Positions 11,429 to 15,525 of a stretch of DNA of 64,000 nucleotides are shown piece after piece. Position 1 is the stretch's first letter. Each line of letters starts with the position of its first letter. A program made the translations under genes and the position numbers. Under the pieces are notes generated by a model, which did no database searches, was not told the DNA's origin, and saw only the letters and a list, made by a program, of their open reading frames with translations. The stretch comes from Escherichia coli (GTDB lineage: Bacteria; Pseudomonadota; Gammaproteobacteria; Enterobacterales; Enterobacteriaceae), in the NCBI RefSeq assembly GCF_003790525.1, contig NZ_CP033635.1, one strand, 5' to 3'.

Positions 11429-11636
11429 GATTCGTATTTCCGTTTAAAATGAAGATACGGCGCGATGATACGCGTCGGGTTGTCTCTCTGTTGATACAGA
11501 GATACTAGATGTAGTTGAAAAAAGATTCAACCACACAAGATATGGGAATTTTAGATTGATTACGCCACCGATGAATGGCTCAACGGGGTAGGGGATTTTG
11601 TGTTTTTTTGCCGGGCGAATACCCGGCATCAAGAAG
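11429..11636 (-). promoter_or_regulatory. nrdHIEF promoter/operator region (candidate NrdR/Fur sites)
   Basis: About 200 bp upstream of the first operon gene; contains palindrome-like acagagatactagatgt and cacacaagatatggg resembling NrdR-box half-sites. Not computationally scored. Confidence 0.3.
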
Positions 11637-12068
11637 TTACATCCGCATGGAAACGGCCAGACGGTTAAAACAATTCATCAGCCCGATGGCAAACGTTAAG
11701 TCGCTGATCTCTGCTGCGCTGAAATGCTCAAGCAAAGGCTGATAAACCTCGTCTTCCGCATGGGTTCTGGCAATTTCGGTTACCGATTCCGCCCATGCCA
11801 GCGCCGCCCGCTCGCGTTCATCAAAATGATGGCTTACGCGCCAACCTGCCAGGGCGTCCAGTTTGTGCTGTGGCACGCCGGATTTGCGCAATGCTTTGCT
11901 GTGCATCTCCAGACAAAATGCGCAGCCGTTGATTTGCGAGACGCGCAAATAAACTAACTCCATCAACGTGGTATCCAGTGTGCTATTTTCCAGTGCCGTT
12001 TTGGCCTGCACTAGTGCGTTATACACTGCCGGGCTAAGTTCGTAGTAAGGCTGACGTAATGTAGTCAT
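11637..12068 (-). CDS. Carboxymuconolactone decarboxylase / AhpD-like family protein
   Basis: 143-aa ORF with GCAFCLEMH (CxxC...H) core typical of the AhpD/CMD fold; AGGAG Shine-Dalgarno upstream of ATG. Confidence 0.7.
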   Translation of the reverse strand: MTTLRQPYYELSPAVYNALVQAKTALENSTLDTTLMELVYLRVSQINGCAFCLEMHSKALRKSGVPQHKLDALAGWRVSHHFDERERAALAWAESVTEIARTHAEDEVYQPLLEHFSAAEISDLTFAIGLMNCFNRLAVSMRM

Positions 12069-12155
12069 ACAGTTTCTCCTCTTATTAACGCCCGCAATGT
12101 AGCACTATAATGGACTGCTAAAGAGAGCCATAAATTACCTAAAAAAGCAGACCAT

Positions 12156-13490
12156 ATGCCGCGCTATCAGGATATCGCCCGTCAGTTAAAAACGGCTATT
12201 GAGCAAGGGGAACTGAAACCCGGCGCAAGGCTGCCTTCAAGTCGTACCTGGTCGCAGGAGCTGGGGGTGTCTCGATCCACTGTCGAAAATGCGTATGCTG
12301 AGCTGGTGGCGCAAGGATGGCTGATCAGGCGGGGACAGGCTGGCACATTTGTCAGTGAGCGGATATATCCGCAACAATCTACTGTACAAGTTGTAGCTTT
12401 TGCCGGTGAAAGTCAGCAACCGTTGCCATTTCAAATGGGATTACCCGCACTCGATCTCTTTCCGCGAGAGCTGTGGGCGCGGGTGATGGGGCGTCGCCTT
12501 CGTACCCAGACGCGCTTTGATTTGGCGTTAGGCGATGTCTGCGGTGAGGCGGCGTTGCGCGAGGCAATAGTTGATTACTTACGCGTTTCACGTGGGATTG
12601 ATTGTCAGCCAGAGCAGGTCTTTATCACTCACGGTTATGCGGCCTCAATAGCTTTAATTCTGCACGCGCTGGCGAAACCGGGAAACGGGATGTGGATAGA
12701 AGATCCCGGCTTTCCACTGATTCGCCCGATTGTCACTCGCCATGATGTGGAAATTTTGCCTGTGCCGGTTGATGACAATGGACTGGATATCACAAGCGGA
12801 ATACAAAATTATCCTGATGCGCGTTTTGCCCTGATAACACCAGCACACCAAAGTCCGCTGGGTGTGGCGCTCTCTTTAGCGCGCAGGCATCAGATACTGG
12901 AATGGGCAGATCGTAGTCAGGCATGGATTATTGAAGATGATTATGACAGTGAGTTTCGCTATCACGGTAAGCCGTTACCGGCGTTGAAAAGTCTCGACGC
13001 ACCGCAGCGGGTAATTTATGCCGGAACATTCAGCAAAGCGCTATTTCCTGCATTGCGCTGTGCGTGGCTGGTGGTGCCGGTGAAGCAAATTGCACAATTC
13101 CGCCACCAGGCGTCACTGGCTCCATGTGCGGTACCTGTTCTATGGCAGAACACACTGGCAGACTTTCTTCGCGAGGGGCATTTCTGGCGGCATCTGAAGA
13201 AAATGCGTCAGCATTATGCTCAACGTCGGCAATGGATTGAGCAAGCGTTGACGCAGCAAGGATTTCAGGTTGTGCCGCAGAAAGGTGGTATCCAGATGGT
13301 GATCAGAATGATAGGCGATGATATTGCCCATGCGCGTAAAGCCAATGCTGCAGGCCTTGCGGTGCAGGCACTTAGCGACTGGCGTATCCGTTCAAGTGGG
13401 GAAGGTGGATTACTGCTTTCGTTTACTAATATCGTTAACGAAGGTATGGCGCGACAGGTAGCACAACAATTACGTAAAGCCTTAAGCTAA
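12156..13490 (+). CDS. MocR/GabR-type regulator (GntR HTH fused to PLP aminotransferase-like domain)
   Basis: 444-aa ORF; N-terminal winged-HTH (LPSSRTWSQELGVSRSTVENAYAELVAQG) and C-terminal fold-type-I motif with putative PLP lysine (TFSKALFPALRCAWLVVP). Divergent from the AhpD-like gene. Confidence 0.75.
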   Translation: MPRYQDIARQLKTAIEQGELKPGARLPSSRTWSQELGVSRSTVENAYAELVAQGWLIRRGQAGTFVSERIYPQQSTVQVVAFAGESQQPLPFQMGLPALDLFPRELWARVMGRRLRTQTRFDLALGDVCGEAALREAIVDYLRVSRGIDCQPEQVFITHGYAASIALILHALAKPGNGMWIEDPGFPLIRPIVTRHDVEILPVPVDDNGLDITSGIQNYPDARFALITPAHQSPLGVALSLARRHQILEWADRSQAWIIEDDYDSEFRYHGKPLPALKSLDAPQRVIYAGTFSKALFPALRCAWLVVPVKQIAQFRHQASLAPCAVPVLWQNTLADFLREGHFWRHLKKMRQHYAQRRQWIEQALTQQGFQVVPQKGGIQMVIRMIGDDIAHARKANAAGLAVQALSDWRIRSSGEGGLLLSFTNIVNEGMARQVAQQLRKALS

Positions 13491-13516
13491 AAAACCCCGA
13501 AGCCAGGCTTCGGGGT
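13491..13516. terminator. Stem-loop between the convergent MocR-like gene and ygaM
   Basis: ccccgaag-ccagg-cttcgggg hairpin flanked by an A-run on the + strand (T-run on the - strand); likely ygaM terminator. Confidence 0.5.
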
Positions 13517-13546
13517 CAAAGACGCGTATTTATTATCATTTTTGCA

Positions 13547-13876
13547 TTACGATTTGCGCATGCTTAACAGTGCGCCGATAAAAATACCCACCGCTGCCGC
13601 TGTACCCACACTACACCAGGGTCTTTCACGAACAAAAGAATCCGCGCAGCCAACGGCATCGCGCGCGGCTTGCTGGACGCGAGTACGACCATGCATCCGC
13701 GCCCTGGTTTCTTTCAGTAGAGCCTGCGCTTTACTACGAGCGGCTTCGGCTTCCCCTTTGGCGTCGCTGCACCAGGACTTCAATACAGATTCGAGACTGT
13801 CAGCTAATTGATTGACATCATTCTGGATATCTTGCACGCCATCATCAACGTCGTTGCGGTTCGGTCGGTTAAACAT
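13547..13876 (-). CDS. ygaM: DUF883 (ElaB/YqjD/YgaM family) membrane-anchored protein YgaM
   Basis: ORF MFNRPNRNDVDDGVQDIQNDV... with C-terminal hydrophobic anchor; start taken at the ATG preceded by GGGGGA. Confidence 0.85.
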   Translation of the reverse strand: MFNRPNRNDVDDGVQDIQNDVNQLADSLESVLKSWCSDAKGEAEAARSKAQALLKETRARMHGRTRVQQAARDAVGCADSFVRERPWCSVGTAAAVGIFIGALLSMRKS

Positions 13877-14027
13877 ATGATCCCCCATTAGAATTCGATG
13901 TAATTTTCAGTGTAGACCATAATTTTCTTAACTGAGGTTCATCGCGGCTTTATGGACTTTTCTGAAAGCGTTGTGAATGCGCAATCAGGTAAGGTAGGCC
14001 CGCGGTTGATAATAACGAGGATCAAAT

Positions 14028-14408: not shown

Positions 14409-14858
14409 TCAGGCTTTTACCTGCTGGTAACGGCTGACTTTAAACAGTCGGCGGCAATAATCGAGGAAGTAGCCATAAACCGCCCCCATCAACATCGAAA
14501 CAACGATGTTTGAACTGACTGCCGCCATAATCTGATGCCAGTCTGCGCCCACCACTAACAAGATCGCCACATACACCGGTGACTGGAACGTCACATAAGC
14601 CAGGATATCCGCCAGATTTTTTATCCAGCCCGACGGGCTAACTTTGCGTGCCGCGCGCATAAACAGATCGCGGTACATACCGTATGGCCATGCAATTAAG
14701 ATGTTCACCGGAATCGCTACCAATCTGGAATAAAAAGACTGTTCGAAGCTCATTCCGGAGAGGAAAACTTCAATACACATGTTCACGACAGAACAGTAAA
14801 CAACCATCGCGAACGTATCTGCAACTGCATGACGCAAGCGTGACTGCGGTGAGAACAT
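14409..14858 (-). CDS. alaE: L-alanine exporter AlaE (YgaW)
   Basis: 149-aa hydrophobic [24 protein letters not shown]... Confidence 0.85.
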
Positions 14859-15525
14859 GCTAATGCTCCTTAATAAAAGCGTAATGGGATGTTAATGGAG
14901 ATGAAAGCAGTGGATCTCATTGCCATCTGCATTTTCGCATAGCGTATATCGCTGGCTATGACTAATCAATTAGTGAAAAATTTTTATTTAATCTGTTTTT
15001 GTAGATAAAATATTCCGTAACAGCGCGTTTTTTGTACATTGTGGATTTTTACATGCCGATATGATTTATTTTTAATTAAATCAATTGGATATGTGTTTAC
15101 CTTTATTATCACTCATGAAGGTTTGGGGGTGAGGTAACGCTATAAGCGTAGAGAATTCGGTGTATGTCGTGACCGGGTCATTTTCAGCATTTTTTATGCC
15201 AGAAAATGTACATTGACAGCAGAAAGCACCAGTGAGGGGTGTTTCCATTTATTCGGTTAAATTGCATTTTTATTCATTTTTGTTTTGTCAGGCTTGCGGA
15301 ATTAGCGAGCAGAGAGCGCCGCTCTGCTCACAAATAACCGAAATTACTCATCAAAATGGCTAATATATAATCTTGAAATTATTCTGAGAGTTTCAGAAAA
15401 TAACAGCTGAAATAATCTCGCGCAGGACTGTAAATAGATTAAATTTTGTGGAAATATAATAAGTGATCGCTTACACTACGCGACGAAATACTTTTTTGTT
15501 TTGGCGTTAAAAGGTTTTCTTTATT

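Follow-up and report, generated by a model that had tools for sequence, protein, structure and literature searches.

The closest relatives with a solved structure of the regulator considered here are two members of the MocR family, GabR from B. subtilis and PdxR from B. clausii. GabR acts as a PLP-dependent head-to-tail dimer, which represses its own gene and activates the divergent operon, and its operator is made of two direct repeats only. The target of PdxR is pdxST, and its 48-bp operator combines a pair of direct motifs with an inverted one. In the cryo-EM work of Freda et al. (2023, PMC10450172), the closed complex of PdxR occupies the outer inverted motifs, with PLP switching the choice of motif.

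The gene predicted to be under the control of the present regulator encodes a small protein of the CMD/AhpD type, for which PA0269 from P. aeruginosa (PDB codes 2IJC, 2O4D and 7XW1) is the nearest characterized relative. PA0269 showed weak reduction of H2O2 in the FOX assay, a thiol-dependent activity that was blocked by thiol alkylation, and proteins of this type share only ~9% overall identity with AhpD from M. tuberculosis (MtAhpD) (Clarke et al. 2011, PMC3141380).

MocR regulators with such targets have been catalogued by Suvorova and Rodionov (2016, PMC5320631), who studied 825 MocR regulators and found COG2128 in 53 regulons. One of their groups, ‘Spro_3719’, was predicted to have a single target, COG2128/PF02627 (Table S1b), and its regulog ‘Spro_3719 - Enterobacteriales’ comprises STM2803, CKO_04020, Ent638_0497, KPN_03002, ECA2654 and Spro_3719. 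This regulon is a prediction in a supplementary table, while the main text holds no discussion, motif description or experiment on it. For Pseudomonas, this group comprises the regulog PFL_2191, with COG2128, AcpD and PF00583. The PA0268 group, located beside PA0269, was also predicted to regulate COG2128, often with a cupin (COG1917), and is a different orthologous group from that of the present regulator in the 2016 classification. A literature search for a functional study of, or an experiment on, any member of the Spro_3719 orthologous group found none. STM2804 was described as lying ~5 kb from stpA and otherwise appears only as a neutral cat-insertion site. The protein z3974, which is only possibly the product of the CMD gene discussed here, was one of 16 proteins from O157 that a salicylidene-acylhydrazide column retained, although Far-Western analysis did not confirm it.

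The locus lies in a stretch of 64,000 nucleotides from Escherichia coli (contig NZ_CP033635.1, assembly GCF_003790525.1), which is called the window below. It is a two-gene unit made of cmd (143 amino acids) and mocR (444 amino acids), transcribed divergently across a spacer of 87 bp (12069–12155), with nrdE, nrdI and nrdH on its left and ygaM, ygaC, alaE and stpA on its right (Table 1). The first-pass annotation had described this layout, and its coordinates agree exactly with the open-reading frames. Both frames are under purifying selection, with dN/dS of 0.03–0.06 for cmd and 0.07–0.10 for mocR between E. coli alleles and in comparison with E. albertii, and are therefore real genes rather than chance open-reading frames.

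Table 1. Coordinates of the genes and of the observed or predicted elements at the cmd–mocR locus, in window numbering
Feature	Coordinates	Strand	Basis
Segment missing from K-12-type genomes, ~1.9 kb	11603..13493	.	blastn of the empty allele against the window and MG1655 annotation
Hairpin GCCGGG-CGAATA-CCCGGC	11610..11627	-	Read from the sequence; 9 nt 3' of the cmd stop codon
CMD/AhpD-like gene (cmd)	11637..12068	-	Open-reading frame, 143 aa
cmd Shine-Dalgarno GAGGAGAA	12074..12081	-	Sequence; CTCC conserved in the 18-locus alignment
Conserved -10-like element TAGCACTATAAT	12100..12111	.	Invariant or near-invariant columns T44, A45, C47, A48, T50, A51
Predicted operator box 1 ATGGACTGC	12110..12118	+	Invariant columns, 18-locus alignment; inverted relative to boxes 2 and 3
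Predicted operator box 2 GAGAGCCAT	12123..12131	+	Invariant columns A68, G71, C72, C73, A74, T75; direct repeat of box 3
Predicted operator box 3 GCAGACCAT	12147..12155	+	Invariant columns, 18-locus alignment; A6 tract before, mocR ATG directly after
MocR-type regulator gene (mocR)	12156..13490	+	Open-reading frame, 444 aa
GC-rich hairpin ACCCCGAAGCC/GGCTTCGGGGT	13494..13516	.	Terminator scan and inverted-repeat search

The 444-residue protein had been called a MocR/GabR-type regulator, and the domain matches bear this out. The features that define the MocR subfamily are all recognizable in its sequence: a GntR-type wHTH (residues 4–66, Pfam GntR PF00392, E = 1.4e-17), a fold-type-I aminotransferase domain (approximately residues 99–441, Aminotran_1_2 PF00155, E = 3.8e-26) and a predicted Schiff-base lysine, K294. 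The closest solved structures are those of B. clausii PdxR (PDB code 7PQ9, 1e-62, full length) and GabR (PDB code 4N0B, 2e-54). Alignment to solved structures predicts D261, Y263, K294 and R301 as the PLP residues, which correspond to D279, Y281, K312 and R319 of B. subtilis GabR, whereas the ligands of the GABA carboxylate in GabR, R207 and R430, are replaced by Leu and Asp, and a likeness to GabR in its dimeric, autorepressing and divergently activating mode of action is putative. PdxR has the same domain order, and the PLP lysine, Arg43 (R30 in the window protein) and the basic α13 ridge are conserved, while the wing residues Arg74/Lys75 of PdxR are Gln/Ala.

The divergent gene encodes the AhpD-fold CxxC protein that the first-pass annotation had proposed, as it matches Pfam CMD PF02627 (E = 5e-21) and carries the motif C49-A-F-C52-L-E-M-H56 (CxxCxxxH), whose C49, C52 and H56 do not vary among 46 homologues linked to a MocR gene. 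It scores 54.9 bits with the AhpD core-domain model TIGR00778 (NCBIfam ahpD_dom, cutoff 27.8) and 30.9 bits with the AhpD subfamily model TIGR00777, far under the cutoff of 191.95. PA0269 aligns to it with 41% identity over 141 residues and no gaps, its Glu36, Cys48, Cys51 and His55 corresponding to E37, C49, C52 and H56, which preserves the CxxC/His/Glu relay of AhpD-type proteins, while its Tyr50 is replaced by Phe51. The weakness of the peroxidase activity of PA0269 and this change of one relay residue from Tyr to Phe make it possible that the enzyme acts on something other than a peroxide. The redox motif CxxC...H and an AhpD core domain that is all-helical are shared with MtAhpD, but the latter is a protein of 177 residues that reduces AhpC, whereas the window protein consists of one domain of 143 residues and is unlinked to ahpC, no copy of which was found in the neighborhood of cmd in the window or at the syntenic loci. 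The protein is predicted from its sequence to be a CxxC thiol oxidoreductase. A functional tie to nrdHIEF, with NrdH as the reductant, was considered and rejected, as relatives outside Enterobacterales are not adjacent to nrd genes.

Synteny and regulon content indicate that the window pair is probably orthologous to the Spro_3719 group. A Salmonella-named homologue with 77% identity is found at the same nrdH-side site near stpA, and the PFL_2191 regulog matches the GNAT/AzoR/CMD operons of relatives at identities of 45–49%. The E. coli representative used in 2016 was K-12, which is without the module, and the E. coli copy is hence not on that list. The module is already catalogued, as an ordinary two-gene unit.

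The spacer was expected to contain a repeat operator for the regulator, and three boxes, two direct and one inverted, were indeed found there. Cross-species alignment of 18 loci predicts an operator of 46 bp (12110–12155), in which boxes 1 and 3 are the outer inverted half-sites, 42 bp apart, and box 2 lies inside in direct orientation with box 3. A repeat search with seed 6 yielded no hit in the spacer; the boxes are 8–9 nt long and imperfect within one sequence, so that the cross-species alignment is needed to see them. Of 79 related loci, 39 have the three-box pattern 5' of the regulator, where ~0.26 would be expected from a background of 0.0033 per 220 nt, and as a composite the pattern is unique in the window and was matched in none of 100 shuffles. 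E. coli alleles with an 8% difference in mocR share a 61-bp operator region that is 100% identical. In architecture the predicted operator resembles that of PdxR, both being ~46–48 bp long with two direct motifs and one inverted, an A/T tract and a position in the spacer to the divergent gene, and its three boxes distinguish it from the two direct repeats of GabR. Two perfect inverted repeats between the operator region and the interior of mocR (12117–12128/12869–12880 and 12129–12139/13010–13020) are taken as chance, since this complementarity decays in other alleles without compensatory changes.

The operator overlaps the conserved -10-like element of the spacer, which holds two overlapping hexamers, TATAAT (plus strand, 12106–12111), facing mocR, and TATAGT (minus strand, 12109–12104), facing cmd. 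A CACTnTAG element is also found left of box 1 in Pseudomonas loci. No -35 element is recognizable on either side of the hexamers, and a consensus scan found no full sigma-70 site in the spacer, so that the promoters of cmd and mocR are predicted from the conserved -10-like element only. At the other end of cmd, the hairpin that follows the gene has an A-run, not a U-run, behind its stem on the minus strand and is therefore no canonical intrinsic terminator, nor was it picked up in the terminator scan; it lies within the segment missing from K-12 and is absent from the empty allele. The second hairpin, between the convergent mocR and ygaM, is kept in the K-12-type empty allele.

That K-12 has no genes between ygaM and nrdH, as the first-pass annotation had stated, is borne out by the annotation of MG1655, where ygaM (b2672) adjoins nrdH (b2673) across a spacer of 247 bp, and in K-12-type genomes ~17 nt stand in place of 11603–13493. 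The full-length module is carried by 1,276 of the 5,426 complete genomes of E. coli; a further 111 (~2%), for example FEA3 (NZ_CM132924), have a 588-bp deletion that takes out the HTH of the regulator, and the rest, ~74% and K-12 included, are without the ~1.9 kb. The module is dispensable, as about three quarters of the complete genomes have lost it and 2% more have lost the DNA-binding domain of the regulator, and losses so frequent within E. coli speak for a role that is marginal or confined to certain niches. Beyond E. coli, the same nrdH–ygaM/ygaC site holds the pair at more than 20 loci in at least 10 enterobacterial genera, among them E. albertii, Citrobacter, Kluyvera, Pseudocitrobacter, Cedecea, Pseudescherichia, Shimwellia, Pluralibacter, several Enterobacter species and Rahnella, and in addition on a Salmonella-named contig.

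The first-pass annotation had taken the pair as inserted, and a horizontally acquired islet between nrdH and ygaM in the lineage of this strain would agree with its absence from K-12 and from most complete E. coli genomes, and with the high synonymous divergence of the mocR–ygaM stretch (dS of 0.35–0.42 between E. coli alleles, against ~0.10 for cmd and nrdH), pointing to some recombination at the locus. However, position and orientation are identical across genera from E. albertii to Rahnella, there are also homologues under the names of E. marmotae and E. fergusonii, and the module is always single-copy and chromosomal and never on plasmids in the complete E. coli genomes. None of the marks of a genomic island, namely odd composition, flanking repeats, mobility genes or patchiness outside synteny, is seen: the GC content of 0.50–0.55 is like that of the flanks, and searches for repeats at the borders and for mobility genes in the module found neither. 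The empty allele retains the ygaM-side hairpin and a short conserved block left of it, which is consistent with deletion. The synteny across genera, normal GC and missing flanking repeats make the K-12 state a deletion; an insertion is very improbable and already largely refuted, and the module is ancestral in enterobacteria and is being lost in E. coli. Repeated loss, by full deletion in most genomes and by the removal of the HTH in 111, together with the frameshifted or split matches to the regulator in Enterobacter sp. ENT03 and Derxia, might instead mark a decaying remnant without current function in E. coli. This is quite improbable in view of the dN/dS of 0.03–0.10 for the two genes, the 1,276 full-length copies, the perfectly conserved operator across alleles and the intact catalytic and PLP residues.

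Two further alternatives concern the names under which the genes may be filed. RefSeq gives the product of cmd as ‘carboxymuconolactone decarboxylase family protein’, in keeping with the Pfam family, but a genuine 4-carboxymuconolactone decarboxylase (PcaC-type) of aromatic catabolism it almost certainly is not: the NCBIfam matches are all AhpD or peroxidase-related with no PcaC model among them, the redox motif is invariant, the closest structures are the AhpD-like PA0269 and Atu0492 and not decarboxylases, and no pca or cat genes lie near cmd in the window or at the syntenic loci. Recent RefSeq records label the regulator pdxR, and a true PdxR, sensing PLP for vitamin B6 biosynthesis or salvage with cmd as an accessory target, would fit the closest solved structure, the architecture of the operator, PLP itself as a possible ligand, and the NCBIfam PdxR equivalog NF052282, which scores 407.1 bits over a cutoff of 320. 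The models for rhizopine MocR (354 bits, cutoff 650), GabR (261, cutoff 600), YczR (166, cutoff 487), EhuR (155, cutoff 480) and PtsJ (130, cutoff 573) stay below their cutoffs, and the 354 bits of the rhizopine model indicate that such models are broad. Against a true PdxR, linkage to B6 genes is missing, as no pdx gene stands beside the regulator at the ~20 syntenic loci and the divergent gene that alone shares the operator is CMD/AhpD-like at every one of them, in contrast to the pdxST target of B. clausii PdxR. PLP synthesis in E. coli follows the DXP-dependent route through PdxA and PdxJ, and the species is not known to have pdxST. Short-query blastn found no second close copy of the operator in E. 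coli genomes, a sensitivity at which degenerate sites would escape. Moreover, the Spro_3719 group is separate from the PdxR, PdxW and PdxQ groups and has no B6 gene in its regulon (PMC5320631). A true PdxR is thus unlikely, and the newer name has probably been over-propagated.

We consider it likely that the pair is an ancestral enterobacterial two-gene regulon, in which a predicted PLP-dependent autoregulator switches a CxxC oxidoreductase. MocR, loaded with PLP, would wrap the 46-bp operator as a head-to-tail dimer, and since this operator overlaps the common -10 region and reaches the start codon of mocR, its occupation is expected to repress mocR. If the analogy with B. clausii PdxR holds, cmd would be turned on or off by a ligand-dependent exchange between the inverted and the direct pairs of boxes; since the predicted core promoter of cmd encloses the boxes, either activation or simple repression of this gene is possible. 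Candidate ligands are PLP and amines capable of forming an external aldimine with it. In a detoxification response, the enzyme would then serve as a thiol-dependent peroxidase or disulfide oxidoreductase that uses Cys49 and Cys52, a role that fits the more distant relatives, whose CMD gene is controlled by the same regulator along with a GNAT and an FMN-dependent azo/quinone reductase. A more far-reaching version is rather unlikely: the MocR/COG2128 pairing could represent an undescribed mode of stress sensing, where the PLP aldimine of the regulator detects small reactive compounds, for example oxidants, carbonyl-reactive nucleophiles or toxic amines, and a detoxifying CxxC oxidoreductase is turned on in response.

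The biology of the module is unlikely to surprise a specialist. The locus is ancestral and was lost by K-12, which corrects the tempting reading of a strain-specific islet; K-12 is the derived state here, and this matters for the bookkeeping of the pan-genome. A probable over-annotation as “PdxR” that is spreading in RefSeq is flagged as well. MocR/COG2128 is the commonest type of MocR regulon without an assigned function, and the precise 46-bp predicted operator and the three allelic states that occur naturally in well-studied strains (Nissle 1917, O127:H6 and O157:H7 versus K-12) could be used to characterize this widespread MocR–AhpD-like regulon. If the stress-sensing reading were true, the intact, HTH-deleted and absent states of E. 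coli would offer a ready genetic system for finding the ligand and the substrate.

The pair consists of cmd, encoding a CMD/AhpD-like protein, and the divergently oriented mocR, encoding a MocR-type regulator. Both open reading frames lie exactly where the first-pass annotation had placed them, 87 bp apart, and the expected domains were identified by Pfam: CMD (PF02627, E 5e-21) in the 143-aa protein, and GntR (residues 4–66) with Aminotran_1_2 in the 444-aa protein. The module, i.e. both genes and their spacer, is flanked by nrdE, nrdI and nrdH on the left and by ygaM, ygaC, alaE and stpA on the right. The genes cmd and nrdH share a strand, with cmd 208 bp upstream (11429–11636), and the hairpin 3' of cmd (11610–11627) is followed by an A-run, not a U-run; transcription from cmd may read through towards the nrdHIEF promoter region. 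The GC content is low (0.35–0.39) at 14750–15500, upstream of stpA, in a region otherwise at ~0.51.

Features of the cmd–mocR module (positions in the window)
Feature	Position	Strand	Sequence	Basis
cmd, 143 aa	11637..12068	minus		ORF call
mocR, 444 aa	12156..13490	plus		ORF call
Intergenic spacer, 87 bp	12069..12155			between divergent cmd and mocR
Conserved element	12100-12111		TAGCACTATAAT	invariant columns, 18 spacers
Box 1	12110-12118		ATGGACTGC	invariant columns, 18 spacers
Box 2	12123-12131		GAGAGCCAT	invariant columns, 18 spacers
Box 3	12147-12155		GCAGACCAT	invariant columns, 18 spacers

As the first-pass annotation stated, K-12 has no genes at this site: ygaM (b2672) and nrdH (b2673) of MG1655 are adjacent, with nothing annotated between them. 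Its reading of the module as an insertion between nrdH and ygaM is refuted by synteny. In a search with the regulator as query and one genome per species, the divergent pair was found at the nrdH–ygaM/ygaC site in E. albertii, three Citrobacter species, Kluyvera, Pseudocitrobacter, Cedecea, Pseudescherichia, Shimwellia, Pluralibacter, several Enterobacter species and Rahnella, the last with a regulator of 47% identity. A homolog carrying a Salmonella enterica name at NCBI (77% identity) shows the order proV-nrdFEIH-CMD-MocR-ygaC-alaE-stpA, and other homologs carry the names of E. marmotae and E. fergusonii. The window carries ~1.9 kb more than the K-12-type empty allele (roughly 11603..13493), and both alleles retain the ygaM-side hairpin along with a short conserved stretch on its left. 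The GC content of the module (0.50–0.55) is like that of its flanks, and no direct repeats bracketing it were found at its borders. Together, these comparisons argue that the module is ancestral at the nrdH–ygaM site and that the K-12 state is a deletion. The module might alternatively be a dead remnant, a reading contradicted by purifying selection on both cmd (dN/dS 0.03–0.06) and mocR (dN/dS 0.07–0.10). The K-12-type allele keeps the 115 bp nearest nrdH. The opposite loss pattern is seen in Citrobacter (L004–L006) and Salmonella-named contigs (L084/L085), where ygaM is absent and the pair is kept beside ygaC.

Among 5,426 complete E. coli genomes the module is variably present, full-length in 1,276 and partial in 111, with only the flanks in all the rest; it is chromosomal and single-copy without exception. 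Carriers include Nissle 1917, an O127:H6 strain, APEC O1:K1:H7 and O157:H7, the allele of the last being ~92% identical to the window, while K-12 and 55989 lack it. In FEA3, the partial-copy genome examined, 588 bp are missing, beginning near the mocR start codon and ending at codon 187, so that the HTH is lost while cmd and almost all of the predicted operator are intact. This recurrent in-frame deletion (window 12152–12746, 7-nt microhomology; NZ_CM132924.1 and ~110 other genomes) also reaches into the aminotransferase-like domain, whose first part is lost along with the MocR start and the HTH, and PGAP annotates what remains as a pseudogene; such strains are natural regulator nulls. The regulator is matched by tblastn in two overlapping or separated pieces in Enterobacter sp. 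ENT03 (L081, 4001–5306) and Derxia gummosa (L075, 4001–5569), which suggests a frameshifted or interrupted gene; both loci may be additional cases of independent inactivation. Between the window and the O157:H7 locus (L002), dS reaches 0.42 in mocR and 0.35 in ygaM (window 12156–13888) as opposed to ~0.10 for cmd, nrdH, nrdI and ygaC, which suggests that mocR–ygaM is an old recombination block or falls into deep allelic lineages. O157:H7 also has ~95 extra bases between the mocR hairpin and ygaM (L002 3915–4040), containing REP-like sequence (…TGATGCGCTATG…CAGGCCTGTAGGCGGACAAGGCG…).

The closest structures to the regulator are B. clausii PdxR (7PQ9, 1e-62) and B. subtilis GabR (4N0B, 2e-54). 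It has the Schiff-base lysine K294 together with D261, Y263 and R301, but R207 and R430, the GABA-carboxylate ligands of GabR, are replaced by Leu and Asp. The NCBIfam models for GabR, rhizopine-MocR, PtsJ, EhuR and YczR are all failed, while the PdxR equivalog is passed with 407 bits against a cutoff of 320. Newer PGAP records (H4, H5, H35–H37 and others) read [quoted passage not shown], the older RefSeq name being “PLP-dependent aminotransferase family protein”. No pdx gene lies in the neighbourhood or shares the operator, and because of this context the newer label is doubtful and looks over-propagated from a broad HMM; the protein would be a true B6 regulator at most in a loose sense, with PLP as its possible ligand. 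For the 143-aa protein, a PcaC-type decarboxylase is excluded by the redox motif C49-A-F-C52-L-E-M-H56 and by the NCBIfam models, which give no PcaC match; only the AhpD core-domain model is matched, AhpD proper being below cutoff.

The nearest structures to the 143-aa protein are P. aeruginosa PA0269 (PDB 2IJC, 2O4D, 7XW1; E 3e-31) and Atu0492. PA0269, 41% identical over 141 residues without gaps, is AhpD-like with a Glu36, Cys48, Tyr50, Cys51, His55 relay, and reduces H2O2 weakly, an activity sensitive to thiol alkylation (PMC3141380). The relay counterparts are E37, C49, F51, C52 and H56, Tyr50 thus being replaced by Phe. A set of 46 regulator-linked homologs shares residues C49, C52, H56, R42, Q45, N47, W76, E86, N135 and R136 without variation. 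Most likely, the enzyme serves detoxification as a thiol-dependent peroxidase or disulfide oxidoreductase working through Cys49/Cys52. The O157 protein z3974 was among 16 retained on a salicylidene-acylhydrazide affinity column, with the redox proteins Tpx and WrbA, although Far-Western did not confirm this (PMC3191033); z3974 may be cmd, judging by gene order, since ygaM is ECs3533 in Sakai.

Mean column identity in an alignment of 18 orthologous spacers is only 48%, and the invariant columns are the cmd start codon and ribosome-binding site, the conserved element and the three boxes. Boxes 2 and 3 form a direct repeat, box 2 being 24 bp upstream of box 3, and would supply the MocR operator sought in the spacer; box 1 pairs with box 3 in inverted orientation (42 bp from ATGG to CCAT). 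An A6 tract precedes box 3 and the mocR ATG directly follows it. The composite pattern matches the 64-kb window at a single place and 0/100 shuffles, and in relaxed form it precedes the regulator gene at 39 of 79 related gamma-, beta- and alphaproteobacterial loci (background 0.0033 per 220 nt). O157-type and window-type alleles, whose mocR genes differ by ~8%, are 100% identical over the 61-bp operator region, and no second close copy was found in any E. coli genome at blastn sensitivity. The conserved element contains overlapping -10-like hexamers, TATAAT towards mocR and TATAGT towards cmd; both promoters are putative, since neither hexamer has a recognisable -35 and a consensus scan reports no promoter in the spacer.

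The B. clausii PdxR operator (48 bp, two direct motifs and one inverted) follows the same plan. In the closed complex of holo-PdxR, two wHTH domains are anchored on the outer inverted motifs and the DNA wraps over a basic ridge of the aminotransferase-like dimer; PLP alters motif usage (PMC10450172). PdxR Arg43 corresponds to R30, and the basic α-13 helix is also kept. By this analogy, a PLP-loaded dimer would bind 12110–12155. As this stretch runs into the shared -10 region on one side and up to the mocR start codon on the other, the bound regulator would probably repress its own gene. Control of cmd would lie in a ligand-dependent choice between boxes 1+3 and 2+3, acting by activation or derepression, two options that the sequence does not separate.

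Regulons for 825 MocR-family regulators were reconstructed by Suvorova and Rodionov in 2016, 53 of them listing COG2128 (PMC5320631). Table S1b there contains the orthologous group “Spro_3719”, whose enterobacterial regulog comprises STM2803, CKO_04020, Ent638_0497, KPN_03002, ECA2654 and Spro_3719; COG2128 is the sole predicted target of almost all members, except ECA3744, with PF00583. COG2128 is a target in the sister groups PA0268, blr6977 and SGR_2706 as well, frequently alongside a cupin. E. coli was represented by K-12, hence the missing copy, and none of these groups is taken up in the main text. Relatives at 45–49% identity have a divergent operon of GNAT, FMN-dependent azoreductase-like and CMD genes, in agreement with the Pseudomonas regulog of this group (COG2128, AcpD and PF00583; PMC5320631). 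A literature search for experimental work on any member found none. The module is thus a real, ancestral and already catalogued MocR–AhpD-like regulon, experimentally uncharacterised in the literature found, and it is clearly dispensable in E. coli.
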